Positions 11,472-36,654 of a stretch of 38,422 nt of DNA are shown piece after piece. Source of the stretch: a virus (lineage: Duplodnaviria > Caudoviricetes); the IMG/VR virus record IMGVR_UViG_3300010362_000052, positions 1-38,422 of that record. One strand, 5' to 3'. A program made the position numbers and the translations under genes. A model generated the notes under the pieces. It was not told where the DNA came from and did no database searches. It saw only the letters and a list, made by a program, of their open reading frames with translations. Numbering within the stretch: the stretch's first letter is position 1; every line of letters begins with the position of its first letter.

Positions 11472-12452
11472 ATGATGGACATTCGCCGCGTTCTGTTCGT
11501 GCTGTTGGTGTGCTGGTGCATCGTCACCCCGGCTATCGTCGAGTCCGATTCTGAAAAGAAACCGAGCCCGAAATCGACCGCCGGGGATAATGCACCCGCT
11601 GCCCCTCAAAAGGCAGTGGCCCCGGCGGTCGTCGTCTCGGATGTCAGCCAGGCGATCAAGCAGGCGAAGGAGAAAGCCGCGGCCGACGTAGACGCCGCTG
11701 TCATCAAGGCTGTCTCTTATCAGGCCCCGCCACCTCCGCCCGCTCCGGCTGGAGAGAATCCTGCGCCGCCGGCGGAAATGCCCCCGGTCGTCCTGTCGCT
11801 GCCTGACGTGGTGAGAGCGCCCGTCGGCATCCCCGTCAAAGTGAAAGCCACGACGAACGGCGTGATGGTGCGCTGGCTCGCCAAGGATGACGGTCTGGCG
11901 ATGATCGACGGCGAGCTACTGAAGGACAGCACGCTGACCCAGGTCTGGGCGAACTACCCGGGCCAGTATCGGCTGCTGGCTTACACCAGCCTCAATGACG
12001 TCTTGAGCGATCCGGTGCAGTGCCTGGTCGTCGTCCACGGGGCCCAGCCGCCACCGCAGCCGACTCCGGTACCGCCGCAGCCCGAGCCGATCCCGCCCGA
12101 GCCCGAGCCCACTCCCCCGCCAACGCTCGCCGCGCACCTGTGGGTAGTGACCGTCGATAACGTCGCCAAGCGCGACGCCGCCACCACGCGGGTTCTCACT
12201 GACATGCAACTGGACGCCTCGATCCGAGCGGCCGGGCATCAGTTCAAGAAGATCAACTCGACGATTCCCGAAGCGCAGAAATTCATGCCGATGATGCAGG
12301 CCAATGGGGGCATCCCCGTCGTGGTGATCATGGACGCCGACAAGGTGGAACACAACTGGCTCAACCAGGCGCCGGCGGATCTCAAGCTGCCGACGACCAG
12401 TCAGGGCCTCAAGGATCTGATCAACAAGTACACGACTTCGAAGGTGCGCTGA
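11472..12452 (+). CDS. Secreted protein: signal peptide, Ig/PKD-like domain, Pro-rich linker, C-terminal alpha/beta (thioredoxin-like?) domain
   Basis: GAGG SD; MMDIRRVLFVLLVCWCIVTPA signal; V.W....PGQYRLLAY beta domain; PPPQPTPVPPQPEPIPPEPEPTPPP linker; GIPVVVIMD...LP.T..GL..LI.K. Confidence 0.75.
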   Translation: MMDIRRVLFVLLVCWCIVTPAIVESDSEKKPSPKSTAGDNAPAAPQKAVAPAVVVSDVSQAIKQAKEKAAADVDAAVIKAVSYQAPPPPPAPAGENPAPPAEMPPVVLSLPDVVRAPVGIPVKVKATTNGVMVRWLAKDDGLAMIDGELLKDSTLTQVWANYPGQYRLLAYTSLNDVLSDPVQCLVVVHGAQPPPQPTPVPPQPEPIPPEPEPTPPPTLAAHLWVVTVDNVAKRDAATTRVLTDMQLDASIRAAGHQFKKINSTIPEAQKFMPMMQANGGIPVVVIMDADKVEHNWLNQAPADLKLPTTSQGLKDLINKYTTSKVR

Positions 12453-13306
12453 TGGATCTTCCTGATATCCGCGGGCGTGACGGTGTGACCCACAAGCTGG
12501 GTTACGTCCCGCCCACCAAAGACGAAACGATGGTCCGCGCCTCGCGCACGAACATCCAGACGATCCGCAAACAGAACGGTTTGAGCCCGCTCATCAAACC
12601 CGGCGACCCGGACTGGCGCGAATGTGATTACACCGCCGGTGCGCCGCTGGAACTGATCACCGACCAGGGACAGGAAGGAAGTTGCACGGCCTGGACCTGC
12701 GTCGGCGCCCAGGCCCGCCAGCGCTGGCTGCGGGTCGGTGATGTCGTCGTGGCCAGCGGCTACTACGTCTACGACTGCATCAACGGTGGTCAGGACAACG
12801 GCAGTAACATCATCGCCAGCCAGAAGATCATCGAGACGGTCGGCGCGCCGCCGATCGACGCCTATCCGCGCTGTCGTTATCCCGGCTACATCCCGGCTGT
12901 GCCCGACGGCACCCTCATGTACCGCGAAGATGTGGCCATTGTCGGGGCGACCGCGCTGGAAGCAGCCACGATGCTGCTGATGGGAATGCTGTTCCAGGGA
13001 CCGATCTACGTTGACAACAGCTTTGACAACTTCACGCGCGACGGGGTGGCCTGGAACGGCTATCCGCCCAACACGACATCGACCAACCATTCGGTCTATT
13101 TTGCCGGCATCCGTTTTTTGAACGGCGACCCGGAAAACTGGTATCTGATTCTCGTCAATTCGTGGCGTTACAACTGGGGCCCGTGGGGCAATGGCTGCTG
13201 CCTGTGCCCGCCGGATGGCATCAACAACGGGGCGCGTGCCGATGACGGCTACGGTCATGCCTCGGTTTTGAAACCCGTTCCCTCGGGCTCGGAAGGTCTC
13301 CCATGA
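12452..13306 (+). CDS. Papain-like (C1 family) cysteine peptidase
   Basis: DQGQEGSCTAW (oxyanion Gln, catalytic Cys), NGGQDNGS, NHSVYFAG (His), LVNSW..NWG..G.G (Asn); TGATG coupling. Confidence 0.9.
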   Translation: MDLPDIRGRDGVTHKLGYVPPTKDETMVRASRTNIQTIRKQNGLSPLIKPGDPDWRECDYTAGAPLELITDQGQEGSCTAWTCVGAQARQRWLRVGDVVVASGYYVYDCINGGQDNGSNIIASQKIIETVGAPPIDAYPRCRYPGYIPAVPDGTLMYREDVAIVGATALEAATMLLMGMLFQGPIYVDNSFDNFTRDGVAWNGYPPNTTSTNHSVYFAGIRFLNGDPENWYLILVNSWRYNWGPWGNGCCLCPPDGINNGARADDGYGHASVLKPVPSGSEGLP

Positions 13307-14689: not shown

Positions 14690-15017
14690 TGTCACCCTGG
14701 CGCTCCCGAGCGAAAAGCCGCTCCTCAAGAGCCGCACGCTCACCGTGTCCGGTGTGGACGAGGACGGCACGACGCTGGAAACGGTGGTCGTCGAGTTGGG
14801 ACGCGACGACAAGACAACGCAGATCGACGTCCCCGAAGGGGCCAGCATCCGGCTGGAGCAGGTGGATAGCGACAAGTGGGGCCCGAAGGCGCCGTACGTC
14901 ATGCACTTCACGGCGACCCGACCACTCCCAATGAGCGATGAGGGGCAACTCGCCGTCGCTGAATCGCCTCACCACAAAAAGCCGGAACACAGGGGCCATC
15001 GCCACAAGGAAGACTAA
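14679..15017 (+). CDS. Hypothetical beta-rich protein (112 aa)
   Basis: GGGAG SD; stop overlaps the stop of the convergent giant gene. Confidence 0.65.
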   Translation: MILNVTLALPSEKPLLKSRTLTVSGVDEDGTTLETVVVELGRDDKTTQIDVPEGASIRLEQVDSDKWGPKAPYVMHFTATRPLPMSDEGQLAVAESPHHKKPEHRGHRHKED

Positions 15018-18000
15018 TCGGTCGCTCCGGCCATCGCCGACTCAATCTCGAACTGGGATTCCTTGCTCAGATGGTGTCCCCTGCGGGCAGCCCTCCTCTC
15101 CAGCGTATTTTCCACTTCAGGGGTTCTGAAGCCAAGGCGTTTCAATTCCTGGGCTGCCCACTTGCGGTCGATAGCAGCCTCCTTGAAGCGCTCCACAAAC
15201 TTCGGAATTGGCTCGCCCAGCTTCCGCTCCGGCGAAGCCGTGAGCGCGTGCCCCAGCGTACCGATATACTCCTTGCGGAGTGATTTCCGCTCCCCGGTCT
15301 TGTCGTCGATGTACGTCACATCGCGCTCTGTCTCTTTCGACAGAGGATTCGGGTAACTCTTCCGGGGCGGGTTCCCCAGGGCATAATCGGCCAGCCCGAC
15401 ACTGTAGGCGCCCAGTTCCAGCTTCTCCTCGTTGGTGCTGAGCTTGAGCGCCTGTTTCCGCAGTTTCGTCAGGACCTCCTTGTAACGGGTCATCTGCCGC
15501 AGCCGGGCCTCGTTCTCGTCGTTCGACCAGCCCTCATGCTTCGCGGTGGCGACGTTCGTCTCCAGTTCGCCGTATTGGTCGTAGAAGTCCTTGATGGCCC
15601 GCTGGTAGAGCCCGCGCGTTTCGAACTTCCGGGTGAATGCCTCGGCGAGGGTTTGGGCTCCCTTCGCCAGAATGTTCTGCTCCTTCCTCTGCGCGGCCCG
15701 CTCGATGGCGCCGACGTACTCGGTATACATCGTGCCGCTGTACTGGTTCAGGATGTATTCCGTCTGAGAGGGAGAGAGCCCGACCCAGTGGGTCAGATAC
15801 TTGCTCATGAATTTCGACGATTCGAGCGTGTGCGGCCCGGCGCGGAGGTACTTCGCCAGATGCTCGTCGTCTTTCATTTCGATGGGGCGCCCCGACCAGT
15901 CCGTATTAGCGATGAGTTCGTAGACCGTGCTGAAACCTGCCGGCCGCATGGGCGGGGTCAGCGCTTCGATCTCGTGCCAGAGTTTCTCCCCCAGCCGTGG
16001 CTTGTCGCCCCGTGTCCAGGCGACGAACGCCTCCATCAGGTTCGGAATGAACGAGAAGCCGCGCGGCTTGGGGATCTTGAGCCACGGGATGCCGAATGTG
16101 GAGAACGTCCAGTAGCGGTCGGCAATGTTGCCATCCATCCCCTTACGGTCGTCGTCGTCGCCGTTCATCAGGGCATAGATCAGGCTCACGGTTGCCAGCA
16201 CGGCGGCAGCCGTCGCCCGCTTGCCCCAGGCTTCGCCCTTGCCGGTGGCGATCTCGCCGATGGTCGTGAGTTCTTTCTCCAGTCCGGCCATGCCGGCGGA
16301 GAAGAACGGAATGACCTTATCCACTTCGCGGGCCATGTAACCCTTCCGCTTGAAGTTGGTCAGGACCTCGTTGCCCGCCGCAATCGCCCGGGAGATCAGC
16401 TTCTGCGGGAGCGCGTCGATGACCCGTCCCTGGGGGTCGATCCAGAGGTTGTTGCCGGCTTGCCGCTCGGCCGGCGTCGCTTTCCCGTTGGGACGGTAGC
16501 CGGCCTGCCGGATCACCGCCGCGATCTCGGCCAGCCGCATCCCCGAGTCGAGGATGCCGATTGCATCCTTGACGCTGTTGAGGGTGTCGTATTTCACCCC
16601 GACGACGAACTTCTCCCACGTCGTACGAGCGAAGGTTCTCTCGATCATGGCCTTGGTCGTCTGCGCCGGTGTGCCCAGCCGATGACCGGTGATCTTGCCG
16701 CCTTCCCGCTCCTGCAGCTCGTTGAGGATCTCCCATTCGACAGTCTTCTCGCCGACGAATCCCGGGAGCCTGTCCGCCCGGAGCTTCGCCCCGATGACGC
16801 CCCCCACGGAGATGAGGTGAGCGTAGTAGCGGTCGAACCAGCCGGTGTGTTTGCTCTGGATCGGGAACATCGCCGCGTCGATGACCGCCAGGCTGAGGAT
16901 CGTACTCGGGTGGAGGGCCACCGACATGGCCTTGATGGGGTTGGTGACAAATTTCGCCTGGGCGTTGATGATCCCCGTCCAGAGGCGGGCGAAGGTGTTG
17001 GCCTGCATCGGCGTCCGCATCCCCATGATGGCGTTGTAGACGTAGGGATGGGGGAACTGCACCATCAGCGGCTTGTCGTCCACCATCACCCGGACGACAT
17101 GCTCCCGGGGATCGCTCGAAAAGTCCTGCCGGTACCAGGCCACCGCATCGTCCAGGTCGGGGACGTGATCCGTGAGCGCGGTGAGGGTCCTCGGATCGTT
17201 CGTGCCGTACCGGAATTCCAGCCGTTGCCAGCCGATGTTGCTGAGGGTGCCGTCGCGGAGTCCGCTCACGTCTTTAATAAGCTGCGCGAAGTCTTCGTCG
17301 ATCAGCGGCTGGCGGATCGACGTACCGATCCGCTTCGGCTTGGTCATGTCGCTGAGAAGCTGTTCCAGCTTGGCCTTGTCCTTCACCCACTTGGCGTCGG
17401 TCTTGACGATCCATTCGCTCATCCCGGGGGCCCCGCCCAGGGCCGGCAGGGTGAGCCGCAGGAAGGGCATCATCATGGCGTATTTGACAGCCGCGTTGTG
17501 AACCTCCTGATTCTGCCGCATGTATGCCTGCAGGGGGGGCAGGATGGCGTCCGAGGAACCAACCTCGGTCATCCGGCGGAACGGGCTGCGCCCCCCGAGC
17601 AGGCTCTTCGAGGTCCCCATCACGAACTGCTTGGCGCGGCCGAAGAGTCCGACCTCGCGGGTCCGGTAACGGGGGACGTAATAATCCTTCTGGGAGTCGA
17701 TCATCCTTTTTGCGGCGGTGAAACCGATTACCCCTTCATTGACGGCCAGCATGAGCAAGCCTTCTGAGAATTGCCGCATCCCCTTGGCGGCATCCTCAAA
17801 CCGTTTGAACTTGGCCGCATCGGCTTGCACCTCGGCGACCCGGGCTCTGTAGACCCGCTCCTCTTCACCCGGGTTGTAGTTTGGCCGGCGCGCGATCCGC
17901 GACAGGGCGTCCTGAGCGTCCACGAACGTTTCCCACTCTTTCAGTTCGTTGCGGGCGATGTTCCGCATGTAATGCTTCGCGCTTTCGGCGAGCTTCTGAG

Positions 18001-21000
18001 GTTTGTTGCCGCTGATCGTGAAGATGCCGTTCTCCCAGGCGTCAGCCGCCCGCGCTTCGTAGCTCCCCATCAGTTCGTCAATCCGCTCGTTGAACTCCTG
18101 CTTGCGGATTGGCGCCATCGCCCCGTACTTCTTCTCGATGGCGCGACCGGCAATTTCCTTGATGACGCTGGCTTCGTCCTGCATGGCGCTGCGGAAAGCG
18201 CTGACCCCGCTGGTCAGGGTGTCCTTCATCGCCTCCATTTTCTCCTTGTCCAGTTCCATCGCCCGGCGCCCCATCGCCCACTGGTTGGCGAGGATCGTGT
18301 CCTGGGGGTTCTGCTTGCGGAACCGCTCGATCCAGTTCCACATCTTCTGGAACTTGGCCTTCTCCTCCTCGTGCTTGTCGAGCCAGTCGCTCAGGTGCTG
18401 GTACGCCTGGGGGGCAACGGTATAGCCGGCGTTGGTCGTGAAGACATGCCGCAGGAACTCGGCAAACCCCTCGGTGGGGTCCTTCCGCTTCTGGTTGTAA
18501 TCGAGCGGCCCCAGTTCGTCCTTGACGCGCTGCGGCATCGAGGTGAAGAGGTCGGTATGGTCGTCGATCCCGTGCGCGACCTCGTGGAAGATGACTCCCA
18601 GGTTGGCCCACTCGGGAGACGATACGCGGATCACTTTCGAGAGCAGTTCGTAGTAGGCCAGGGCCTTGTTCCGCAGTCGTCCCTTGAGGATCGGGTAGCC
18701 CCAGAGCCGGGAGAGCGAATAGCGGATATCGTGGGCGGAGATCGGGCCCTTTTTCTTCGGGCTCAGCTTGGGGAGCTTGAGCTTCTCGTACGCCTTCTGC
18801 CAGAACGTCTTTTTCTTCGGGGCGGTGGCAAACGTGGGGACGTTCCCGGGGCCGGCGCTGGTGCCGGTCCCCGTGGCGAACCGATCGGTCGGATAGTGCT
18901 GGCGGCGCAGGGCCCGGAGGTCTTCGTCTTCGTCCTCCTCTTCGTCGAGCGCGTCAGGCTGGGGAGCGTGGGGAGGGTGTCTGCGGTGCTGTACGGCCTC
19001 TTCGTGCTGTTTCGCCTCGGCCTGGCTCTTTGCCTCCATCTGCTCGGTGATTTCGTTGAGGCGTTTGGTAACCTTTTCCAGTTCGTCGTCCTTCTCCCAT
19101 TTGCTGTTGACGACTTCTTCGTAGTCCACTGCCTCACGCTTTTTGGCCTCCAGGTTCTTCTTCACCTCTTCCACAGCCTGCCGGGCCCGGTCGTCCAGGC
19201 TGTTCAGCACGTCCACGATCCCGCTGCCGGTGACCGCATACCCCTGATAAATCGAGGCGTTTGGGTTCCAGGTGGGCAGAAAGTCCACCAGCGTCTTTGT
19301 CAGCCATTCGAGAACTACCTTCTTCTCTTCAATCCCCGCGAATTTCTGAAAAGCGCCCGACCTGATCACGATGTTCATGTCGCCGAACTTGATCCCCTTC
19401 CGGAGATTTTCGGAATAGGCTTTCGTCTGGTTGCCCCGGTCGGGTTCGTACGGCGCAACCTTTTCGTCCTTCGTCAGCTTGAGAACGTTCTTTTCGTGTT
19501 CCTTGATGATCGAGTCGATCTTCGCGGCGATGGCCTTCTCGTCCTCCATCTTCTCTTTGTCGATCGACCAGTTACCCGACTTGAGAAGGGCGTTGATGTT
19601 CTTCTCGGTCTCCTCGGCATTGGGGATGTACCTCTTCTCGTAATCGCGGATCGTCTCACGGACCCCGCGCAGACGGTATTCGGCCCGCCCCACCTCGTCG
19701 CTGTGGGACTCCTTCTCCATCTCCAGTTCCCGCTTTTTGTATTCGAGGTCGAGCTTCTCGAAGTAAAGCGGGTCGTCGAGAACGGAGGCAAGCTGCTCCT
19801 CCATGCTCAGCGTCACGGCCGAGGCCGGGTCCTCAAACTCCCGGCCCGCCTTCCCGGTGATGGCTTGCCAGACCACCTTGGCCTTGCGGACGAGTTTGTT
19901 CAGAATTGCCGAGTCGAGCGTGCCGCTCATGGCATAGCGGTAGATTGAGACTTCCGGGTTGAGGTTGCCGAACCGGAGGATGCGGCCCTCTCGCTGCTCC
20001 AGGTCGGTCGGCATGTAGGGCGAATCGAGGTGGTGCAGGGCGACCAGGCGTTTCTGCACATTGACGCCCACCCCCATCTTGGCACTCGACCCAAGCAGGA
20101 ATCGGATCTGACCCTGGTTCACGCGCTCGAAGAGCGCCTCCCGCGCGTCATCATTGTTGTAGTCGGCCACCGCGGCGATCTCATTGGCAGGAACACCACC
20201 CGCAATGAGCCGCTTCTTGATGTCGTTGAACAGGAACGCGCCCTTCTCGGATTCTTCCTTGGCCTCCTCCATCGGGATGTTGAGATCGACCGTTTCCCCC
20301 TCCAGAAACTTCCAGAGCTTGGTCATGTTCCGAGGGTTGAAGCTGTCGGAAAAGATAAGCTGCGTCCCCTTCACCTCTTTCGAGTCATGGTACTCCTGCA
20401 GAGCCAGCTCGGTCATTTTGTCGAGCTTGCCACCGACCTCCGCCTTGGCGCCCGGCACGATCAGCCGGATATCAATGGACGCTGCCTTCCCGGCGCCGAA
20501 GAGCGAGATCGGGACCCAGTTATTGAGCTTTTTGTCTTGGCCCGACATACCCTTGTAGATGGCGTACGCCTTCTTCACGATCTCCTGGAATTTCTTACCG
20601 CCGGCACTGAGCGGCACCGTGATCGACTGGACCTTCCCACCCTTGAGGGCTGGCAGACCTCCCTCGCCCAGCGCGATCAGCTTGGCCCGGAGCATGTCCG
20701 GGGAGATAACGTCCCAGGCGGTACGAATGAGCCGGGCGAATTCATCGCCGTTGGTGAACCGCGACAGGGCCTGTTTCTTCACCCAGGTCCCGCCCGCGTT
20801 CATCTCGGCGATCGTCTCCGTCATGGCGAAGGCGCCGACGAACCGGTCGAACGTATCGACCCCCCAGTCCTTCAAGACGTCTGGGGCGACGTAGTTCAGC
20901 ATGTGCCAGGCTTCGCCGAGGGTGTTGGTGATCGGCGTGCCGGTCGCCAGGACGATGTTCCGGCCGTTGGATTTCTCCCGGACGTGCCGGATCTTCATCA

Positions 21001-24000
21001 TCAGCGCCATCGACGTGGGATTCTCAGTCAGATTGAGCCCCACCAGCTTGTCCAGCTTCGACTGGAAAAACGGCTTCTTGTAGGCGTGCGCCTCATCCAC
21101 GAACAGGGAATCAATCCCCAGTTGCTCGAACGTCACCGCATCGGTCGATTCCTTCGACCGTTTCATGGCGTCGGCGAGCCGCTTCTGCAGCCTGTTCCGC
21201 GCTTTCACGATCTCTTTGACCGTGCTGGATTTCTTGCGCCGCCGGCTTTTGGATTCTGCGCGCTCCTCCTTCTCGATCTCGGCTTCGAGGATCTCCAGTT
21301 GTTCCTTGACGTAGGCGATCTCCGTCTTGGGGTCGATGGGGAGCCGGTCGAACGTGCTTTGCGGCATGACGATGGCATCCCAGTCGGTCGCCAGCGAACG
21401 GGCAAGGAACGCCTGCCGGTTTTCCTTTTTGAGGTCGTTCTTCGTGGCGACCAGCACGCGGGCCCCGGGATAGAGCCGCAGGAACGATTTGGCAAACTGT
21501 CCGAGGGTCGAGTTCTGGACGGCGATCAGGGGCCGCTTGGCCAACCCGAGCCGCTTCTGCTCCATCGCGGCGGCGACCATCAGGAAGGTCTTGCCGGCGC
21601 CAACGGCGTGGGCGAGCAAGGCCCGACCGTCGAGCAGAATCCGCCAGACCGCATCCCGCTGGTAATCGCGGAGCGTGATCTCCGTGTTGCTGTTGGGGAG
21701 TTGCAGGTGAGACCCGTCGTACGTCATCGGAACGTACGAATTGAAACGGTCGTTAAACGCCGCTTCGACCGCATCCCGGGCCTCTTCATTCTTCTCGGCG
21801 TACCTTTTCCATTCCTTCTGAAGCTGCTGGATCTTCGCCCTGGCGCCGGTCGTGGCCTTTTCATCGACGACGTACTGGGGGCTGCCCCGGGGACCGATAT
21901 TGATCCTGACGACCGGATCTTTGAGGTTGAGGGCCGCTTCCAGCAGATCGCTGGCGTCCTTGTTGCCGACGTTCCAGGCTTCGTTACTGATCGAGCCGAC
22001 TCGCCAGCCGTCGATGGCGTCGATGTACTGCACTGACGCCTGGTAGTCGCGGAAGATTTCCCGGGCGAAATTCTGAACAACATGCGCCGGCAGCCACGCC
22101 GCGCCCAGACGGAAATTCTGAATCCCCTTGATGGCGATGGGAGCCGGCTGGACCTTCTTCAGGGCCTCCACGTTAGCCTTGTACTTCGGATCAGACTCAG
22201 CCGCGTCCTCCGCCAGACGCAGCTTCTCCCGCACGTTCCCCGACAGATACCGTTCGGAAATCTCCCACTCGCCCGACTCCGGGTTTTCGTAGGCCATGCC
22301 GCTCTTGGGCAGTGTGCTGGTCACCACCTCCAGGACGGATTTGCCCAGAAGCTGGGCGACATACGCCGGATCAATCCGCCCGCGGTAGCCGAGCGAGATC
22401 CGGATGGCGTCCGGCGCCGTTGAAGCGCTGGTCGGTGGCCGGCGCGAGCCATCGAGGATGCGCTTCGTGAGCGCTTCCGATTTCTTGTAAGTCTTCCGCT
22501 CCTTATTCGTCTTCGGGTCGATCTCCTGACCGGTCATCAACTCCAGCGACTGCACGAACCAGTAGTCAGGATCGCTCGTAAACGGGCGCGTCTTTACATC
22601 ATCGAGGTGCCCGTGCGCCTTGATGTATTTGTCGAAAATGACGTTGATTTCTTTGAGCGACTTTTTGAACTCCGCATCGGTGCTATCTGGCGAAAGCATC
22701 AGGGCGCGGTGCGCCCGCCACTTATCGCGCAGGGCGGCGTAGTCCTTTGCCCGCTTGATCACCTCGGCCTTGTTGAGCGAAGGGTGCGCACCCTCGGGGA
22801 GCTTCCCGCCGGGCACCAGCTCGTGGAGCTGCCCCTTCGCGGAGAAATAGACCTTGCCGTTCTTCTCCACGATCGAACCGTGGATGGCCTCGTCCTCTTC
22901 TTCGGCCTTGATCACCTCCCCCTCGGCCTTGCCGGTTGCGGCCATGATCTCCGCCGGCAGGGTGGCCGTAGCCTTGTCGATGGCCTCGATCAGGTTCCGG
23001 CCGTCTGGCTTGACGGTGTATTCCTTCTCGTCGGCCTTGCGGGCGTACATCTTCCCCTGCATCGAATGCTCGCCGAGAACCATCTCGGGGTGATCGACGA
23101 AATACTGGTTGACCGTAGCCGTCGTCGTTCCACCGTCCGCCGGGACATCCTCGGTGAGCCGCCAGAGGTTTTCGATGTGCTGGTTGCCGATGGGTTTCCG
23201 CAGGAAAAGGATGTCCGCGGCGACGTCCGTCCCGGCGTTCTCCCGGAAGGCGTTGTTGGGGAGTCGGATGGCACCGACCAGATCCCCCTTGCCGACGAGG
23301 AACGTTCGCTGATCGACGCGCGCGTCGAGCGTGTTGTGGGTCGAGATCACCGCCACGATTCCGCCCGGCCGCACGGCATCCAGGGCCCGGGCAATGAAGT
23401 AGTTATGCAGGTTGAGATCCTGCCCATACCGCTCTTCGGAATCGGGCTGCGTCTGCGCGGCGAAAGGGACGTTGCCGATGACCAGATCGACCGAGTTGGG
23501 GGCGATCTTCGCTTCGTTCAGGTCCTTGTTGATGATCTTCGCCCGCGGGTACAGCTTCTCCATCATTCGGGAGGAGAGCGGGTCCATCTCAACCGCGTAG
23601 AACTTCGACTTGCTTCCCACCTCGGGCGGGGCCAGTCCGATGAAGTGACCGATGCCGGCGCCCGGTTCGAGGACGCGCCCGCCGGTGAAGCCGAAATGCC
23701 GCACGGCTTGCCACATCTTTTCGATGATCGGCCGGCTGGTGTAGTGGGCGTTGATCGTGGTGTCGCGCGCCTTGTACCACTCGTCCTCGGTCAATTCATC
23801 CTTGAGGATGCGGTAGACTTCGCCCCACTTCTTTTCCCAGTTTTCATCGCGGCCGTACGCGGACTCACGGATCATCGCCTCGCCCGTGTAGCGGTCGAAC
23901 GCCTGGGACATCGCCCCCCAGCCGGTGTAGCGCGCGAGAACCTTCTTTTCCTCGGGAGTGGCGTCGCGGTTTTCGGCTTCGAGCGTTTTGAGCAACCGAA

Positions 24001-27000
24001 TGGCATCGACGTTCGCCTGGGCCTTCGCGGGAAAGCCCTTGGGCACGATCACGTCCTCGGGCGCGATGACGTGATTTACGCCAGTTCGTGCTTCTCCTTG
24101 AACTTCTGGAGGAGCTTCTCCTCCTCCGGGCTCAGCGGCTCCTGGTCCTGCCAGTCCGGGTTGATCGGGAGAAGGTCGCTTCGGGCGAGTTCCAATATCT
24201 GGTCGAACGTCGCCTTCGGGAGTCTTTTCTTCAGTTGGGCCACGCTCTCCAGGTAATCCTTCACCCTCTGGTCGAGGAGCGACTCCAGTGTCTGGGGGTG
24301 GGGCAGCAGGCTCGCCAGGTGCCGGGGGTGCATTTGCTCCAGGTTCTCCAGGACCTCCCCCCACTCCGGTGTCTGGTTGAACGGCACCAGGACGCTTTGC
24401 TCGTCCTCCGCCTCCGCCCCCTCCGCCGCCTCTAGGTCGTCTGCCACTGGGTTCTCCTTCGGGTGGTGCCGGTTCCGGCGGGGCCGGTTCCTGCTCGGAT
24501 TCTACTGGAGGTTTCGGCCCCTTGGCAATCTCCTGCTGCATCCGTTTGACGATGCTCTCGGCCACCTTGTCGAGCATCTCGTCGGTAATGTCGAAGTCCA
24601 CAGTTTCGGGGTCCAGGTCGAGCAGCTTCCAGTCCGCCTGATCGTGAGCGAGGTCCCTCGCCAGTTCGTGGGCCAGATGGAGATCCTCGTCGCCGAGCGC
24701 CTGTTTGATTTCCGAATCGTTGCGGATCTGTGTGGCCACATCCTCCAGCACCGGGATAAATTTGTTGGCGATCTCGTCGCCGTACTTCTGGCGGATCTCC
24801 TCCAGGGCAATCATCAGCGGCCGTCGGCGGTTTGCCCGTTCGATCGGGCCGACTGCCTCTTCGGCCATCTCTGGAAAGTGGCGCTGGCCCCCCTCCGCGG
24901 TCGGTGCCTTCCCCTTGGGGGCGGTCGGCGGTCGCTCGGCAGGCGGTTTGGGAGGAGTTGGCTCAGGTTGTTCGACCTTGGGAGGTGGCGGGGCTGTCGG
25001 CTCGGGCTTGGCTTCGGACTTCGCGCCCAGGGCATCCAGCGCGTCTGCCACTCTGTAGTGGAGGTCTTTAATCTGTGGACCGGTTTCGTACAGCTCACCG
25101 GAGTATTGACCGAGGGGCGTGACCGATTCGAGTTTCTCGACGATTCTGGCCAGTCTCGAATCGACCCGCACGCCCAGGTGGCGCGCAAGCCATACCAGTT
25201 CCTTCCCCGTGATCTCGGTTTTGAATCGGGAACGAAGATCCTCCAGTTTCTTCCGAGTGTCTTCGTCGTACTCACGCCGGTGTTTTTCGTATTCTTCCTT
25301 ACGCTGCTTTTCTTCGGCCTCGCGCTGCGGCGCCTCCGCCTTCCACTTTTCGATCACCTTCCCCATCTGTGTGTGAATTTTCCTGATGTCAGCGAGTGTC
25401 AGCGGTGCGCCGACATTTTTCTGATACAGGTGTGGCTGCAAACTACCTTCAGTTTTGATTCCCGTGGGCGAGATGTGTTTAACGCTCCGCGTCAGGACGC
25501 CCCTGACCGCCTCGTGGATCTTCATACCGCCGCTGCCCAAGCGCTCAATCAGGTCTACCAGTTCCTCACCGGTGATCGACTTGTGGAATCGGGTCATCAC
25601 CTCGTCAAGATGCTTTTCGTGGGCGATCGACTCCTCGCGGTGCCGCGCCTTCTCTTCGGCGTAGTCTTTTTCTCGCCGCTGTTCCTCTTCTTCAAGAATG
25701 GCATCCAAGCCGTTGAACTTCTTCAGGAAGAACTCAAGCGCGTGCTTTCCCTTGGGAAGTTTTTCGCCGGTGAGTTCCTCGAAGAACCGACGGTAGGCAG
25801 GGAGACCGGACTCCAGCAGGCCCTGCACCATCACCTTGCGCATCTCCCGAGGATCGCTGATACCCCTAATGATCTGACGCGCATCGTCGCGCAGAATGTT
25901 GAGGTAGTGTTCGCGGCCGTGGCGAGCCAGATCCGGAGGTTCTCCGCCCTTGCGCTTCCGGTAGTCTTCAATCTCTTCCTCTAACCACTGCTGAGCGGCC
26001 TTGTCGGCAACCTGCTCGGGGTTCTCGATCGGCGCCCGCGGTTTGCCCGGCGCAGGGGCCTCTGGCTCGGCTGGCGGAGCAGCCCCCCCTTGGGGGGGAG
26101 TGGTAACCCCTCCGCCAGCCGGAGTCGCCGCGTTGATCACATCCCAGGCTTGCTGCGGCGTCATTCCACGAATGGCCTCCTCGGAATACCCGAGGTCCGC
26201 CAGTTGCTGGCGCATTTTCTGCGTAATCATCATCGGCACGCCGGCCGGCGGTTTCGGTGCCTCTGGAGCAGCGGGTGTCGCCGACCAGATGACCGAGCCG
26301 TCCCGCCCGAACAGCTTCGACACCATCGGCTCATCGACGTACTGCCCGCTTTCGAGTTTGATCTCGCCGGCCGAGGCGTCGTAGGCTGTCGGCTTCCAGA
26401 GAGCGGATACCTTGTGGCGCGTGCCGTCGTGCAGCTCGACCTCGGCAACGTCTTGGAGAGCGGCGTGCGCGAACGTTCCCACCTCGGGGGCCGGAATCGG
26501 CGCGCCGCCTGGGCCTTCTGTCGTCTCCGGTATGGGGGCCGGCGCTCTGGGCTGCGGGCCCGGCGGTTGTTCTACCGGCGGTTGGGGCGCAGGAGCGGGC
26601 GTCGGGGGTTTCTCCACGACGGGCGGAGGCGCGGGAACCGGCGGCGTTGGCGGGGGGCTCGGTGTTGGGACATTCGGAGGTTGCGGTTGTGGTGCGGGTG
26701 GTTGTGGAGCAGGGGGCTGCGGTGCCCCAGGCGGCGGAGTGACAAAGCCCGGAACCGGCGGCTGCGGCACGGTCGGCCCGGCGCCCGGAGGCGGCGCAAG
26801 CTGAGGTCCGAGCGGCTGCTGCTGCCGACCGAACGAGGGCATCCCGTACTGGGCGTAGTGCGCCGCTCCGCCCGCGATTCCGCCCGTCAATCCACCGGTC
26901 AACGTGGGCTCGATCGTGCCGTCGAAGAGTGCCGCCAGCCCCGTCTTCGGCTGGCCGTTCTCGTCGAGGATCGGGATGTTGTGGGCCAGCTTGTTAGCGT

Positions 27001-27979
27001 TCTGCAGAAGCTGCGCCGTGAATTCCTCGGTCGCTTCTTCGCCGAAGGTGTTGAGAACTTCACGAAACGCCTGCTTGAGTGGCTGTTTGAATCCGAGCAG
27101 AGCCGCCGCCGCGCCTTTCCCCTGGCCCATGAAGAGCATTTCGGTGAGGGTGTCGGCCGTGGCATTGACGGCGGCGTAGGCGTGCTGCTGGCCCTTGCTC
27201 TCAATTCCCGCCTGGCTGGCCTCATGCAATCCCGCGTCGTACGACTGAGCCGCCATCACGGCCAGGTAGCCGCCGGAGCCGAGGGCCCCGCCGATCGAAG
27301 CAATCTCGGCCAGCGATTTGACGACGCCCGTCACCATTCGTTCGGCGAACGGCGTGGGGTGCCCGTACTTCTGCTTGTAGCCCTCTTCGCGGGCGGCGAG
27401 ATAATCGAGGAACACTCCCGAGACGTCGCCGATCGGTTCGATGAGACCGGCCTTTTCCAGTCCGCGGGCGACGACGTTGGTTGCTACGCCGGCCGTCTGG
27501 GCGATCCCTGCTCCCGCCTGCTCACCGGCTCGAACGAGCGGGTTGAAAGTGAAGCCCGGCATCTGGGAAGCGCGCCACGCCGCCAGGTCCTGGTCCGACC
27601 GCCGCAACTCGCCGAGCATCTGCCCCTGCGTCTGCGTCGTCGGCTGGAACGGCTCCTGGAAGCCCGGCGCGAACTGTTGCTGTGCCAGCCAGTCCGGGAC
27701 GCGGCCTTGCGCTACGTTGTCAGGGTCGATGCCGAACTGCATCAGAGCCGAATGGGCCTGCTCCAGCGTCGGCATTGCCGACGGTTCCATCGGCTTCGGT
27801 GGAGGGGGCGGGGGCGCGAAAGGATCGACCAGAGCGGGATCAATGCCGAACTGCTTGAGCTTGGTGGCGGCTTCGTCCAGCGAGGGCAGTCCGGTCTGTT
27901 CCGGGTGCCAGAAATCCTGCTGCGGATTAGCGTTCGTCCTCGGCTGGAACGTCCACGGGAGATAATCCAGCAGGCTCAT
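15014..27979 (-). CDS. Giant DarB-like polyvalent virion/ejection protein (4321 aa): N6-adenine MTase, SNF2/SF2 helicase, zincin metallopeptidase, LPD38-like C-terminus
   Basis: MTase: L..YTGWG, NAHYT, VLEPGAGIGHF, IGNVPF, RLPNNAF. Helicase: LRDYQ, AHAVGAGKT, FVDEAH, ATGTPITN, MGVGVNVQ, QREGRILR. Peptidase: HEVAH...EGFAEF. C-terminus: NFKRKG..IPFF, KIPKP. Last gene of the ejection cluster. Confidence 0.92.
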   Translation of the reverse strand: MSLLDYLPWTFQPRTNANPQQDFWHPEQTGLPSLDEAATKLKQFGIDPALVDPFAPPPPPPKPMEPSAMPTLEQAHSALMQFGIDPDNVAQGRVPDWLAQQQFAPGFQEPFQPTTQTQGQMLGELRRSDQDLAAWRASQMPGFTFNPLVRAGEQAGAGIAQTAGVATNVVARGLEKAGLIEPIGDVSGVFLDYLAAREEGYKQKYGHPTPFAERMVTGVVKSLAEIASIGGALGSGGYLAVMAAQSYDAGLHEASQAGIESKGQQHAYAAVNATADTLTEMLFMGQGKGAAAALLGFKQPLKQAFREVLNTFGEEATEEFTAQLLQNANKLAHNIPILDENGQPKTGLAALFDGTIEPTLTGGLTGGIAGGAAHYAQYGMPSFGRQQQPLGPQLAPPPGAGPTVPQPPVPGFVTPPPGAPQPPAPQPPAPQPQPPNVPTPSPPPTPPVPAPPPVVEKPPTPAPAPQPPVEQPPGPQPRAPAPIPETTEGPGGAPIPAPEVGTFAHAALQDVAEVELHDGTRHKVSALWKPTAYDASAGEIKLESGQYVDEPMVSKLFGRDGSVIWSATPAAPEAPKPPAGVPMMITQKMRQQLADLGYSEEAIRGMTPQQAWDVINAATPAGGGVTTPPQGGAAPPAEPEAPAPGKPRAPIENPEQVADKAAQQWLEEEIEDYRKRKGGEPPDLARHGREHYLNILRDDARQIIRGISDPREMRKVMVQGLLESGLPAYRRFFEELTGEKLPKGKHALEFFLKKFNGLDAILEEEEQRREKDYAEEKARHREESIAHEKHLDEVMTRFHKSITGEELVDLIERLGSGGMKIHEAVRGVLTRSVKHISPTGIKTEGSLQPHLYQKNVGAPLTLADIRKIHTQMGKVIEKWKAEAPQREAEEKQRKEEYEKHRREYDEDTRKKLEDLRSRFKTEITGKELVWLARHLGVRVDSRLARIVEKLESVTPLGQYSGELYETGPQIKDLHYRVADALDALGAKSEAKPEPTAPPPPKVEQPEPTPPKPPAERPPTAPKGKAPTAEGGQRHFPEMAEEAVGPIERANRRRPLMIALEEIRQKYGDEIANKFIPVLEDVATQIRNDSEIKQALGDEDLHLAHELARDLAHDQADWKLLDLDPETVDFDITDEMLDKVAESIVKRMQQEIAKGPKPPVESEQEPAPPEPAPPEGEPSGRRPRGGGGGGGGGRAKRPGAVQPDTGVGGGPGEPGANAPPAPGEPAAPPPDTGVAPRPEGEGLPGERGPTEEKTPEGDVRPDIGTRPKRPSPDQPGLAGPGAAEPGGGEAPPEVQGEARTGVNHVIAPEDVIVPKGFPAKAQANVDAIRLLKTLEAENRDATPEEKKVLARYTGWGAMSQAFDRYTGEAMIRESAYGRDENWEKKWGEVYRILKDELTEDEWYKARDTTINAHYTSRPIIEKMWQAVRHFGFTGGRVLEPGAGIGHFIGLAPPEVGSKSKFYAVEMDPLSSRMMEKLYPRAKIINKDLNEAKIAPNSVDLVIGNVPFAAQTQPDSEERYGQDLNLHNYFIARALDAVRPGGIVAVISTHNTLDARVDQRTFLVGKGDLVGAIRLPNNAFRENAGTDVAADILFLRKPIGNQHIENLWRLTEDVPADGGTTTATVNQYFVDHPEMVLGEHSMQGKMYARKADEKEYTVKPDGRNLIEAIDKATATLPAEIMAATGKAEGEVIKAEEEDEAIHGSIVEKNGKVYFSAKGQLHELVPGGKLPEGAHPSLNKAEVIKRAKDYAALRDKWRAHRALMLSPDSTDAEFKKSLKEINVIFDKYIKAHGHLDDVKTRPFTSDPDYWFVQSLELMTGQEIDPKTNKERKTYKKSEALTKRILDGSRRPPTSASTAPDAIRISLGYRGRIDPAYVAQLLGKSVLEVVTSTLPKSGMAYENPESGEWEISERYLSGNVREKLRLAEDAAESDPKYKANVEALKKVQPAPIAIKGIQNFRLGAAWLPAHVVQNFAREIFRDYQASVQYIDAIDGWRVGSISNEAWNVGNKDASDLLEAALNLKDPVVRINIGPRGSPQYVVDEKATTGARAKIQQLQKEWKRYAEKNEEARDAVEAAFNDRFNSYVPMTYDGSHLQLPNSNTEITLRDYQRDAVWRILLDGRALLAHAVGAGKTFLMVAAAMEQKRLGLAKRPLIAVQNSTLGQFAKSFLRLYPGARVLVATKNDLKKENRQAFLARSLATDWDAIVMPQSTFDRLPIDPKTEIAYVKEQLEILEAEIEKEERAESKSRRRKKSSTVKEIVKARNRLQKRLADAMKRSKESTDAVTFEQLGIDSLFVDEAHAYKKPFFQSKLDKLVGLNLTENPTSMALMMKIRHVREKSNGRNIVLATGTPITNTLGEAWHMLNYVAPDVLKDWGVDTFDRFVGAFAMTETIAEMNAGGTWVKKQALSRFTNGDEFARLIRTAWDVISPDMLRAKLIALGEGGLPALKGGKVQSITVPLSAGGKKFQEIVKKAYAIYKGMSGQDKKLNNWVPISLFGAGKAASIDIRLIVPGAKAEVGGKLDKMTELALQEYHDSKEVKGTQLIFSDSFNPRNMTKLWKFLEGETVDLNIPMEEAKEESEKGAFLFNDIKKRLIAGGVPANEIAAVADYNNDDAREALFERVNQGQIRFLLGSSAKMGVGVNVQKRLVALHHLDSPYMPTDLEQREGRILRFGNLNPEVSIYRYAMSGTLDSAILNKLVRKAKVVWQAITGKAGREFEDPASAVTLSMEEQLASVLDDPLYFEKLDLEYKKRELEMEKESHSDEVGRAEYRLRGVRETIRDYEKRYIPNAEETEKNINALLKSGNWSIDKEKMEDEKAIAAKIDSIIKEHEKNVLKLTKDEKVAPYEPDRGNQTKAYSENLRKGIKFGDMNIVIRSGAFQKFAGIEEKKVVLEWLTKTLVDFLPTWNPNASIYQGYAVTGSGIVDVLNSLDDRARQAVEEVKKNLEAKKREAVDYEEVVNSKWEKDDELEKVTKRLNEITEQMEAKSQAEAKQHEEAVQHRRHPPHAPQPDALDEEEDEDEDLRALRRQHYPTDRFATGTGTSAGPGNVPTFATAPKKKTFWQKAYEKLKLPKLSPKKKGPISAHDIRYSLSRLWGYPILKGRLRNKALAYYELLSKVIRVSSPEWANLGVIFHEVAHGIDDHTDLFTSMPQRVKDELGPLDYNQKRKDPTEGFAEFLRHVFTTNAGYTVAPQAYQHLSDWLDKHEEEKAKFQKMWNWIERFRKQNPQDTILANQWAMGRRAMELDKEKMEAMKDTLTSGVSAFRSAMQDEASVIKEIAGRAIEKKYGAMAPIRKQEFNERIDELMGSYEARAADAWENGIFTISGNKPQKLAESAKHYMRNIARNELKEWETFVDAQDALSRIARRPNYNPGEEERVYRARVAEVQADAAKFKRFEDAAKGMRQFSEGLLMLAVNEGVIGFTAAKRMIDSQKDYYVPRYRTREVGLFGRAKQFVMGTSKSLLGGRSPFRRMTEVGSSDAILPPLQAYMRQNQEVHNAAVKYAMMMPFLRLTLPALGGAPGMSEWIVKTDAKWVKDKAKLEQLLSDMTKPKRIGTSIRQPLIDEDFAQLIKDVSGLRDGTLSNIGWQRLEFRYGTNDPRTLTALTDHVPDLDDAVAWYRQDFSSDPREHVVRVMVDDKPLMVQFPHPYVYNAIMGMRTPMQANTFARLWTGIINAQAKFVTNPIKAMSVALHPSTILSLAVIDAAMFPIQSKHTGWFDRYYAHLISVGGVIGAKLRADRLPGFVGEKTVEWEILNELQEREGGKITGHRLGTPAQTTKAMIERTFARTTWEKFVVGVKYDTLNSVKDAIGILDSGMRLAEIAAVIRQAGYRPNGKATPAERQAGNNLWIDPQGRVIDALPQKLISRAIAAGNEVLTNFKRKGYMAREVDKVIPFFSAGMAGLEKELTTIGEIATGKGEAWGKRATAAAVLATVSLIYALMNGDDDDRKGMDGNIADRYWTFSTFGIPWLKIPKPRGFSFIPNLMEAFVAWTRGDKPRLGEKLWHEIEALTPPMRPAGFSTVYELIANTDWSGRPIEMKDDEHLAKYLRAGPHTLESSKFMSKYLTHWVGLSPSQTEYILNQYSGTMYTEYVGAIERAAQRKEQNILAKGAQTLAEAFTRKFETRGLYQRAIKDFYDQYGELETNVATAKHEGWSNDENEARLRQMTRYKEVLTKLRKQALKLSTNEEKLELGAYSVGLADYALGNPPRKSYPNPLSKETERDVTYIDDKTGERKSLRKEYIGTLGHALTASPERKLGEPIPKFVERFKEAAIDRKWAAQELKRLGFRTPEVENTLERRAARRGHHLSKESQFEIESAMAGATD
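24076..24447 (-). CDS. Nested same-strand, out-of-frame acidic helical protein (123 aa) inside the giant gene
   Basis: AAGGAG (24459-24454) 6 nt before GTG; globular amphipathic sequence, whereas the host frame here is a Pro/Gly/Glu linker. Confidence 0.65.
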   Translation of the reverse strand: MADDLEAAEGAEAEDEQSVLVPFNQTPEWGEVLENLEQMHPRHLASLLPHPQTLESLLDQRVKDYLESVAQLKKRLPKATFDQILELARSDLLPINPDWQDQEPLSPEEEKLLQKFKEKHELA

Positions 27980-29397
27980 GCGGCCCTACCTTTTTCGAGG
28001 AGAATTTTGGCCCGGTAGTACATCGCCCACTGGAGCGGAGTCCACTTATTCAAGGGAAGCTGCTGAAGCTGCTGGATCGTCTGGCCGGCGACTTCGGGCG
28101 TGGCGATTCTTTCGATCATCTGCTGCGGAGTCGGTTGCTGGGGTTGTCCTCCGGCTTGCTGCGGCGGTTGTGCTGGTTGTGGTGCTCCACCCTGTTGAGG
28201 CGGCAGTCCACCCATCACCCGGGCTTCATCATTCGCGCCTGCCGAATCCCGAGCGGCCTCCTCCTTGGCTCCCGCGTATTCCGCTTCGAGGGCTGCTCGC
28301 TGTTGTGCAATCCAGTTCGGATCGCTATGGAGCATCGGGGCATTCGGATTGTTCGTCCTCGTCGCGTTGTCGTAGTCGGCTACTTTTTGCTGCTGGATAA
28401 GACTGTCGAGTTCTTTGCGGATCGCCAGACGCCGCTTGATGGCAGAAGCCTCCACTCGATCCTTGTACTTTTGATGCGCTTCGGCCGTAGTGAGCGGCAC
28501 GAGATTGCCCTCGAAATCGACTTCCGGTTGCTCGCCGGCGCCCTTCGGCAGACCGCGGATACCTTCCAGCCCCCATTCGCCATTCTTCCCTTGACTGGGA
28601 TAGACCGGATAAGTACCGGGCTTCGGGTCTTTCGAGAAGCCGCCGGTTTGGGGATCGTAGTAAACGCATCTCTTCTGGATCTGCTCCAGTGTCGGTGGTT
28701 CCGGTGGTTGATCGGGAGTCATGGCGTTAAGCTGCGCCACCGCCTGCCGCAGGTCGGGCAGAACCGTGCCACGAGTCGCCGTCCCGTTCGCCACCGAATC
28801 CTGATAGTTCTGGATGTCGGATTTGAGCTTGGCGATGCGCTGCTGGGCCGTGGGGCTGAATGAATACCCGGACTGCTGCGCCTTCTGCTGGTTCTGAGTG
28901 AATTGCGCCAGCGGATTCTGGAACAATTGCTCCATCTGCGCTTCTTGTTTGAGCCGATCGTTGTACGCGGCCATCTCCTGCTGGTTGGCGAGCGCGATCT
29001 GTCCCTGGGCAGACTGCAAGCGCATCGCTTCGCCCATGTCCTGCGTACTCTGCTCCTGATGGATCTGGCCCTGTAAGAGCGCGAGGTCCCGCTGATTCTG
29101 TCCCGCCAGAGCGTAGTGGTACGCCTGCTGCTGGGACTCGATGGCAGCCTGGTAGGGCATTTTCTGGAGTTCGTAGAACTGCTGCTCCTGCCGCTGCTGG
29201 TTCTGATTGGCCATCTGCGCGAAGGCCATCATCCGGTCCTGATTCATCTGCTGCTGGCGCATCGCCATGTCGTTATACATCTGCGCCTGCTGCATCCGGA
29301 CGCCGGTGAGCCACTTGGCGTACTCGCCCTGTCCTCCCAGGAGGGCCATTCCGCCGACCGCTGCGGCCGGAGGCGCGTAGTTGATGGTGATGGGCAT
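27976..29397 (-). CDS. Gln-rich putative internal virion / DNA ejection protein
   Basis: ATGA coupling to the giant gene; Gln/Ala/Met-rich coiled-coil N-half; position in the ejection cluster. Confidence 0.7.
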   Translation of the reverse strand: MPITINYAPPAAAVGGMALLGGQGEYAKWLTGVRMQQAQMYNDMAMRQQQMNQDRMMAFAQMANQNQQRQEQQFYELQKMPYQAAIESQQQAYHYALAGQNQRDLALLQGQIHQEQSTQDMGEAMRLQSAQGQIALANQQEMAAYNDRLKQEAQMEQLFQNPLAQFTQNQQKAQQSGYSFSPTAQQRIAKLKSDIQNYQDSVANGTATRGTVLPDLRQAVAQLNAMTPDQPPEPPTLEQIQKRCVYYDPQTGGFSKDPKPGTYPVYPSQGKNGEWGLEGIRGLPKGAGEQPEVDFEGNLVPLTTAEAHQKYKDRVEASAIKRRLAIRKELDSLIQQQKVADYDNATRTNNPNAPMLHSDPNWIAQQRAALEAEYAGAKEEAARDSAGANDEARVMGGLPPQQGGAPQPAQPPQQAGGQPQQPTPQQMIERIATPEVAGQTIQQLQQLPLNKWTPLQWAMYYRAKILLEKGRAA

Positions 29398-35133: not shown

Positions 35134-36654
35134 TCAGATGATTCGTGTCCGGGCGCGCCGCCCCTTCCTGGCGGGCTGCCTCTCTCGGTGTTCACAGCGC
35201 ACGCTGAAATCCGCCAGCACGCGCATTTCGGGAGCGTTGAGCGCCATCTCGATGTAGTAGTTGGCGTCGTACCAGTTGGTGTTGGCCCGGTGATGAAAGG
35301 GAAACCGCCGTAGCATCGACCGGCGGTGGATGACGCAGCCGAAGCCGTTCCCGCGCACACCGACGACTCCCGTCTTTGAGCCGTCGTCGGGCAACATCAA
35401 TCCCATGTCGTCCCAGGTGACGAGCTTGTTCTCTTCGAAGCGGTGGCGATAAATCCCCGCCACGCTGGCGACATCGGCGTTGAAATGCTGCATCAGGCGC
35501 CGGCCCGCATCCAGCGGGGGGAGAATGTCGTCTTCAATCACCCAGACGTATTCCGTCGTCGCTTCGGTGGCCATGCGGTTGTAGATCCGGGGCATGGCCG
35601 AATCGACGACCTGGGCAACGAATGAATTGCGGCGGTTGCGGTCGGCGAAGGAACCGGGTTTGGAGAGCTTCGTCTCCATGTAGCGCACGTCGCCGTACTC
35701 ACACTCCATCGCCCAGCGCCGCAGCATCCTGCCGAAGCGGGGATTGTCGCTGGTGTCACACAGCATCAGCCGTGTCTGGGAATGCGGCCATTTCTGCCGC
35801 TCCAGGAACTCCCGCATTTTGGGCCACGCCCAGAACCGCCCGGCAAAGGGGATAAACAGCGTCAGCGACTCGTTCGCCAACGCTGCTTCAACAAAGTACG
35901 TCCAGTTCTCCTGGCGGACGCGCGTGAGCCAGTTTGCGCCGTGATTGCGCCGCAGGAGAGGCGCCTCATGTTTGGCGAACCGGAAACCCTTGCGGGCGAT
36001 GGCGCGCCAGAGTGCCCAATCCTGAAGCATCGGCCAAGGCAGCCGGACATGGGCGTCAAAAGCGCCGCTGACCTCGATGGCATCCCGCCGGACCAGGCTG
36101 GCGCTATGGCAGAAGTTCTGCCTCTCGATCGACTGCATGTCGGCCGGCAGGTTGTAGACGACCAGTTCGTTCTTGTCGCCAAAGTTTTGAATGCTGCTGA
36201 AGGCGACGGCGACGGTCGTGTCAGCGAAGCACATGACGCCGCTCTCAAGGTAATTGCGGGGCATCACGTCGTCGGCGTCCAGAAAACAGACCACCGGCGC
36301 GTGGGTGATCTGAAAACCTGCCCGCTGCGCACAGAGGACATTGCCGGCCTCGATCCGGACGTAGCGGACGGTAGGAAACTGCCGCGCGACCTCGGCCGTG
36401 TTGTCGGTCGAAGCGTCATCGACGACGACGATCTCCGCCGCCGGGCGGGACTGCCGCAGAACGCTCTCGATCGCCTCCTGAAGGAAACGGCCATAGTTGT
36501 GGCAGGGGATGATCACGGCGATCGCGGGCTCCGGCCCTGGCAATCTCACCCGGCCGGTCTTCCGCAGGTGTTTCTGAATGGCCACCGCCAGAGGCACGCC
36601 GTTCACCCGGAAAGCGGGTTTCGGAATGAATGAGCCGATGAATCGAGGGGCCAT
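35134..36654 (-). CDS. Glycosyltransferase family 2 with two GT-A domains
   Basis: Domain 1: VIIPCHNYGRFL.EAIESVL.QS, VVDDASTD, FLDADD, QDWALW. Domain 2: LFIPF, WVIEDDILPP, GFGCVI, D.NY, A D.SV.CEH. Confidence 0.9.
   Translation of the reverse strand: MAPRFIGSFIPKPAFRVNGVPLAVAIQKHLRKTGRVRLPGPEPAIAVIIPCHNYGRFLQEAIESVLRQSRPAAEIVVVDDASTDNTAEVARQFPTVRYVRIEAGNVLCAQRAGFQITHAPVVCFLDADDVMPRNYLESGVMCFADTTVAVAFSSIQNFGDKNELVVYNLPADMQSIERQNFCHSASLVRRDAIEVSGAFDAHVRLPWPMLQDWALWRAIARKGFRFAKHEAPLLRRNHGANWLTRVRQENWTYFVEAALANESLTLFIPFAGRFWAWPKMREFLERQKWPHSQTRLMLCDTSDNPRFGRMLRRWAMECEYGDVRYMETKLSKPGSFADRNRRNSFVAQVVDSAMPRIYNRMATEATTEYVWVIEDDILPPLDAGRRLMQHFNADVASVAGIYRHRFEENKLVTWDDMGLMLPDDGSKTGVVGVRGNGFGCVIHRRSMLRRFPFHHRANTNWYDANYYIEMALNAPEMRVLADFSVRCEHRERQPARKGRRARTRII

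Follow-up and report, generated by a model that had tools for sequence, protein, structure and literature searches.

DarB of phage P1 belongs to the closest described systems, and both its packaging into the virion and its protection of DNA from restriction have been shown experimentally. Proteins of the DarB type are thought to be delivered along with the DNA, methylating it during translocation, and a JC1 homologue of the DarB-like giants was detected in virions by 51 peptides (PMC9144972). In these proteins the methylase is preceded by LPD36, a four-helix domain with a GXG(G/A/S) motif (PMC5512222); neither TnpV nor DUF1896, nor any overlap or frameshift, is mentioned in the main text of that study. 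DarB-like giants are common in phages, plasmids and conjugative elements, the methylase considered here being matched in 1,324 plasmid and 123 phage records, and the small gene described below may bear on their control. A full-text literature search, with subscription journals and the supplement of Iyer et al. 2017 outside its coverage, returned no report of such nesting. The parts are known, and the arrangement appears to be undescribed so far.

The giant gene and the frame within it

The window, that is the whole 38,422-nucleotide stretch of viral DNA analysed, contains on its minus strand a giant gene (15014..27979) for a protein of 4,321 aa that matches phrog_10089, DarB-like, with 1371 bits. 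An unclassified N-terminal part of 1,177 aa is followed by a linker, LPD36, an adenine methylase, a SNF2 helicase and LPD38, with Pfam matches to the methylase, SNF2, helicase C and LPD38 domains. LPD36, adenine methylase and SNF2 helicase on a single chain place the giant among the DarB-like polyvalent proteins. The LPD36 and methylase region (23003..24082, minus strand) has TGWG at residue 1352, motif I at 1434 and the catalytic motif NVPF, which is the consensus of its family, at 1503. Further along the chain, the SNF2-type helicase (19960..21680, minus strand) contains the Walker A sequence GAGKT at residue 2127, DEAH at 2295 and helicase C at 2610-2671.

Genes for RecE/RecT-like proteins, DnaB and a cytosine methylase lie on the other strand of the window. 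A DUF5131 gene (6854-7885, plus strand), a papain-like peptidase (12452-13306, plus strand) and a family-2 glycosyltransferase (35134-36654, minus strand) are also found, and a weak portal-like match (27976-29397, minus strand) stands immediately upstream of the giant. In the tree considered below, the cellular sequence nearest to the window's methylase (23003-24082, minus strand) belongs to a Planctomycetaceae genome, which hints weakly at the host.

In the +1 frame of the giant gene lies a nested TnpV-like gene of 123 aa (24076..24447, minus strand), whose translation starts with GTG at 24447-24445 and stops with TAA at 24078-24076. A Shine-Dalgarno sequence, AAGGAG (24454..24459, minus strand), precedes the GTG with a spacer of 6 nt. 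The first-pass annotation had drawn attention to this ORF, and its length, start, ribosome-binding signal and quoted sequence all match, on the minus strand. The giant's own reading of the span (24074..24448, minus strand; residues 1178-1302) has the composition claimed for it, a linker rich in G, P, E and R. The nested stop had been placed at the start of the methylase domain, at the residues NHVI; it does fall at a domain boundary, as the LPD36-methylase region begins where the nested gene ends, but NHVI opens LPD36, with TGWG following at residue 1352, and the methylase core motifs come only at residues 1434 and 1503.

Codon log-odds over the span are +0.27 for the nested frame, similar to the body of the gene, and -0.56 for the host frame. 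The GC3 of the host frame drops to 0.30-0.45 here, where nearly every other block of 40 codons has 0.55-1.0. A profile built from 67 relatives with the window protein left out picked the nested segment (E 1.8e-9) from the 504 six-frame segments of the window, whereas the second-best segment reached only E 1.1; no second copy of the nested gene was found among these segments.

Nesting across the family and selection on both frames

Loci for the survey were gathered by similarity to the window's methylase and represent its nearest relatives, not a random sample. In addition to a first 8 loci they comprise the 80 best matches among 447 viral stretches, the 80 best among 594 genome stretches and 6 named phages, which together with the window give 175 partly redundant loci, or 102 lineages at less than 70% identity. 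Against 14,398 six-frame segments, an iterated profile matched the family in 123 of the 175 loci, in every case in the +1 frame. By lineage, the gene is nested in 74 of 102 and is a separate upstream gene in one (L103), and five more nested lineages come from a divergent second subfamily (profile match P 84.5%, E 6.9e-6). The conserved ORF that the first-pass annotation had proposed to look for, with its Shine-Dalgarno sequence, in other DarB-like genes is therefore nested in 79 of 102 lineages, in one frame only. A test that used no profile gave a similar picture: a +1 ORF of at least 65 aa, led by a Shine-Dalgarno sequence and ending at the start of LPD36, occurs in 63 of 102 lineages, compared with 0 of 102 in the +2 frame and an expectation of about 0.01 such ORFs per locus.

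The nested start is ATG in 68 of 75 lineages. A Shine-Dalgarno match of at least five bases is found in 57 of the 75, against 3.6% of control +1 start codons, a frequency somewhat inflated by the choice of the best-scoring start in each lineage. Nested copies span phages, plasmids and genomes of Pseudomonadota, Bacillota, Acidobacteriota, Verrucomicrobiota, Planctomycetota, Chlorobiota and others. As giants with unrelated N-termini, from phages, Firmicute elements and plasmids, all retain the gene, a capsid-specific role is unlikely. The small gene goes with the LPD36-methylase-SNF2 module irrespective of the giant's N-terminus, and this constant pairing with the methylase-helicase gene supports the first reading. 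On the methylase tree, which is unrooted, the nested state is scattered over the entire tree and the un-nested L103 sits among nested lineages. The tree is read without the plasmid rows L224, L225 and L230, the P1 row forms a long branch, and the label 'none' includes both Firmicute loci in which a nested gene may lie outside the fetched 3 kb and lineages that have unmatched +1 ORFs.

No family match was obtained in 22 of the 102 lineages, several of which still hold a +1 ORF at that place. Protein-like +1 ORFs that neither profile matches precede LPD36 in L020, L021, L044, L045, L048 and L057, and likewise in L070, L086, L095, L115 and L145; these are probably more divergent members of the family. 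L132 has two protein-like +1 ORFs in tandem within the giant, each led by a Shine-Dalgarno sequence and lying 704-446 and 410-5 nt before LPD36, and L104 has a +1 ORF of 205 aa; the ORFs of L104 and L132 were not matched to the family.

The host frame is free of stops across the nested gene in 74 of 75 lineages, where codon shuffling predicts 12.3 and synonymous resampling 3.7, and it follows that both frames are under selection. The third frame contains 542 stops across the nested genes of the 75 lineages. Upstream of the nested gene the host frame is open for at least 200 codons in 65 of the 75, and the short plasmid types have conserved host N-termini in common upstream of the nested start. 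The giant would be translated straight through the nested gene, the other frame supplying a flexible spacer that joins the variable N-terminal part to the enzyme. With its own start signals, a conserved product and a host frame open beyond chance, the ORF has the marks of a same-strand nested gene.

A chance shadow ORF, or an assembly error that fused separate genes, has to be weighed at this point. Long alternative ORFs are common at 63% GC, and the window protein taken alone matches no family. Chance is nevertheless refuted by a conserved family in one frame and place, by the open host frame and by the substitution pattern given below. Assembly error is countered by cultured phages among the carriers of the nested gene, and one public contig is identical over the stretch, though possibly the window's own source. 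This explanation has next to no probability, and the sequence evidence makes it almost certain that the nested ORF is a real, translated gene.

A different use of the +1 frame would be programmed frameshifting or reinitiation, in which it encodes either the end of a giant cut short or a leader from which translation of a free methylase-helicase restarts. The nested stop at a domain boundary would suit this, as would the proteins in which an upstream helical domain is fused in frame to a TnpV-like domain (P0051, P0078, P0149 and PBC5 orf33). However, a Shine-Dalgarno sequence (57/75) and an ATG (68/75) are the rule, a host-frame ATG lies near the nested stop in just 4 of 75 lineages, -1 slippery heptamers occur in 2 of 75 nested ORFs against 30 of 225 controls, and Atu_ph08, a close relative of PBC5, is unshifted. 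Frameshifting or reinitiation is accordingly most improbable. The helical domain concerned is often found in the host frame upstream of the nested start, and its fusions in called proteins (P0051, P0078, P0149 and PBC5 orf33, at L011:1-2482), one of which has an N-terminal HTH, possibly point to a binding partner or to frameshift relics. Two further proteins, P0070 and P0095, have the TnpV-like domain at the N-terminus of longer chains with hydrophobic C-terminal parts, one of them with DUF805. No in-frame fusion of a TnpV-like domain to the methylase was seen in the 175 loci, nor in any of the 150 top matches out of 3,487 called proteins, each of those 150 being 76-367 aa long.

The gene had been described as overprinted in the linker, a description that is better reversed. 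In all 18 close pairs compared, conservation is higher in the nested protein than in the linker (62% against 50%, with the methylase at 80%). Substitutions at nested codon positions 1, 2 and 3 number 546, 463 and 702, the minimum coinciding with the host third position. Codon usage, this substitution pattern and the existence of free-standing relatives put the nested gene as the dominant and probably older frame. Because free-standing relatives are known for the inner frame only, the linker is probably the derived reading, and the spacer appears to be a by-product of the inner gene. This would be an unusually old and widespread case of a long gene overlap.

In 21 of 21 phage records that match one family member only the giant is annotated, the GenBank entry for PBC5 orf33 finishes in the nested frame because of a shift that Atu_ph08 does not have, and in two plasmid records from Burkholderiales the small gene is called and the giant begins downstream. 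The statement that the gene is invisible to gene callers is true only in part, as 3,487 called protein clusters match the family. A partner gene missing from most sampled members alters their annotation, in which the small gene is left out or the giant is given too late a start. Copies are likewise unannotated inside annotated helicase genes at L175:5983-6342 (a C. perfringens plasmid) and at L228:2519-2995 (the Campylobacter pTet-type cpp14), and the Campylobacter stretch of L228 is present in 228 plasmid records. Short plasmid methylase-helicases start with QL(D/S/N)LF- or QLSFDF-like motifs, about 150 aa or less upstream of LPD36, that resemble the beta-clamp binding motif. These N-termini are those of L109, L133, L155, L150, L151, L136, L147, L224, L230 and L231, and include lineages without the nested gene; the L-D codons of a QLDLF-like motif can also spell a TTGAC promoter box.

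Relationship to TnpV and probable link to DUF1896

The likeness to TnpV that had been noted loosely is borne out at the level of the family: 21 of 30 relatives scanned match Pfam TnpV (PF14198), 8 of them above the cut-off and the best at E 8.5e-44, and the Firmicute nested copies are canonical members. The window protein itself gives no match against the 27-bit cut-off and is a remote superfamily relative, not a member of PF14198; it was a leave-out profile including TnpV members that recovered it at E 1.8e-9. Taken alone, it has no match in Pfam, PHROGs, NCBIfam or PADLOC or in a word-based homologue or solved-structure search, and in the ESM Atlas it matches unnamed clusters only, at less than 0.8.

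A confident fold was obtained, with a predicted model of pLDDT 86.7 and pTM 0.72 that consists of five helices (residues 27-39, 41-47, 51-75, 81-92 and 107-119). Foldseek found nothing at E 0.001 in PDB or BFVD. VIA-align placed 2APL first among 48,161 chains (Z 5.7, rmsd 2.4, 62 residues), a Z that is weak for a helical protein and under the value which the program itself treats as reliable for that class. This entry is taken here to be PG0816, a structure of DUF1896 (PF08989). No Pfam DUF1896 match was returned for the window protein or for the relatives scanned, while one Bacteroidota DUF1896 protein matches the family profile at E 1.7e-6, and a three-sequence DUF1896 alignment compared with that profile by hhalign gave P 74% and E 2.7e-5. 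DUF1896 was matched in 4 of 201 Bacteroidota genomes, and in all four it stands directly before the methylase gene (in one case in pieces) as a separate gene whose phase relative to the methylase gene varies. The top structural match, the profile comparison and the shared position make DUF1896 a likely remote relative of the nested family, as the first reading had raised. TnpV and DUF1896, both of function unknown, thereby gain a shared and testable context.

DNA-mimic anti-restriction proteins, of the Ocr and ArdA type, are marked by a strongly acidic conserved core. The net charge of the conserved core is -3 in the window protein, with a median of -2 over 68 sequences and values of -5 or below in 10 of the 68, and the canonical TnpV of L126 is neutral. 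The DNA mimic originally envisaged is consequently unlikely. None of the 75 lineages has a net basic nested protein, hence a DNA-binding regulator is not favoured either.

The family also exists outside the giants. TnpV was found in 21 of 61 Clostridia genomes, with 30 loci returned; once the seed locus and one locus without a profile match are set aside, 28 remain, of which 8 are nested in methylase-helicase giants, 19 are alone, meaning no methylase within 1.5 kb, and 1 is unclear. In L103 and L179 the TnpV-like gene is un-nested but directly before the methylase gene. Conversely, the enzyme occurs alone, and the nested gene was not found within 3 kb upstream of P1 darB or of 5 of the 8 plasmid homologues fetched (of 1,324). 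With P1 DarB devoid of such a gene and 19 of the 28 sampled Clostridia TnpV genes standing by themselves, the idea of a two-component DarB system is conjectural.

These observations could indicate an independent anti-defence or mobility factor, made early from its own promoter, which was trapped when the upstream domain was fused to the methylase-helicase by read-across. The 19 lone Clostridia loci are surrounded by mobile-element and cargo genes, and in plasmids TnpV lies under or beside recombinase genes. TnpV of Tn4451 has been postulated to be Xis-like, aiding excision (PMC3158075), and DUF1896 is reported to be often beside AcrIIA9 and ArdA (PMC6739104). The promoter predicted before the nested start would also fit such a factor, and linkage could come from entrapment in an essential gene rather than from shared function. 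On the other hand, as a separate gene it still precedes the same enzyme, and in differing phases, no substitute occupies that position among the assigned lineages, and the nested stop lies between -130 and +110 nt from the start of LPD36 in 67 of 75 lineages. An independent factor is on these grounds rather unlikely, and the reading of the nested protein as a functional partner of the methylase-helicase is, from the comparative sequence evidence, mildly favoured.

A predicted promoter, the proposed function and known systems

The coding sequence of the giant contains a predicted sigma70-type promoter, TTGCCA-18-TAGAAT (24499..24528, minus strand), which lies about 50 nt before the nested start and scores 10/12. 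It is the sole minus-strand sigma70-like site within the giant gene and the best of three such sites in 19 kb, where 2.6 are expected, so it is notable by its position and not by its count. Across the family, sites of at least 9/12 within 100 nt upstream occur in 16 of 74 lineages, compared with 2.7-2.9 in shuffles (maximum 7-8, 200 shuffles), and sites of at least 10/12 in 10 of 74, compared with 0.42 (maximum 2). Several are near consensus, for example TTGACA-17-TACATT. A promoter-like site is thus seen in a minority of lineages, roughly one in five to one in four, while most show none, and a host sigma70 promoter of the gene's own is predicted for part of the family. For C. jejuni pTet, the rows of supplement file 5 of PMC3656092 give dRNA-seq start sites at 3704, 6414 and 8581 and, among those rows, none before the nested ORF (~4705). 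The pTet nested ORF starts just 100 nt into the giant.

Two kinds of partner can be considered. The small protein could be a chaperone, loading factor or activating subunit needed for the folding of the giant, its packaging or export, or its action after delivery, in a role like that of P1 Ulx. Co-location guarantees co-expression, the gene is kept across phages and conjugative elements, and P1 DarB requires accessory proteins, none of which were found in Bcep22-like phages (PMC9144972). Such a protein needs no separate promoter, however, and one would seem superfluous for a plain folding chaperone. Several lineages have the enzyme without the nested gene, orphan TnpV genes have no client nearby, and the family profiles show no similarity to P1 ulx. 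A chaperone or activator is therefore a doubtful candidate.

It is suggested, tentatively, that the nested product is instead a separately expressed off-switch, or inhibitor, for the methylase-helicase. This fits best since a host-type promoter of its own would put the partner before, and apart from, the late giant. The small protein would be produced soon after the DNA has entered, as well as in lysogens or donors, and would remain in the cytoplasm. There it may bind the enzyme module and hold the enzyme off DNA until the giant has been packaged or exported. A delivered giant would then act free of the small protein until newly made small protein turned it off. A complex prediction with residues 18-123 of the small protein (68 rows) and LPD36-methylase (392 residues, 101 rows) returned no answer, with a score of 0.01.

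A more speculative extension, to be regarded as a long shot, is that TnpV and DUF1896 belong to a single superfamily whose members inhibit DarB-type methylase-helicases. Expressed from their own promoter in lysogens and plasmid carriers, such proteins would disarm the anti-restriction enzyme injected by competing phages or conjugative elements, and the incoming DNA would be left to host restriction. This would be a form of anti-anti-restriction control, from which the many orphan TnpV genes of small mobilizable elements would have been stolen as copies. The nested gene can be silenced without altering the giant, which allows a clean test in cultured phages.

Set against described systems, the locus has several partial counterparts. 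One profile joins the window protein and the nested Firmicute members to TnpV of the Tn4451-type mobilizable elements, but descriptions of TnpV make it a free-standing gene with a postulated Xis-like role, unlike the window gene, which is buried in a giant methylase-helicase gene; a Pfam scan found no recombinase beside it in the window. DUF1896 provides the top, if weak, structural match (Z 5.7) and precedes the same enzyme gene directly in 4 of 4 genomes, but it is a separate and longer gene (about 145 aa). With P1 DarB, and with the LPD36-methylase-SNF2 dyad of the polyvalent proteins (PMC5512222), the giant shares domain order and motifs, whereas darB is without a nested gene and the P1 helper ulx is a separate downstream gene.

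A parallel for the arrangement itself is offered by embedded +1 genes of phages such as Rz1 within Rz. The products of these two genes work together. As in that pair, a whole gene lies inside another on the same strand (PMC9144972). Unlike Rz1, the inner gene here is under stronger constraint than the outer frame and is known in free-standing form among its relatives, and the outer frame is a spacer in a protein of 2,000-5,000 aa, in an arrangement that extends over phages, plasmids and integrated elements of many phyla.
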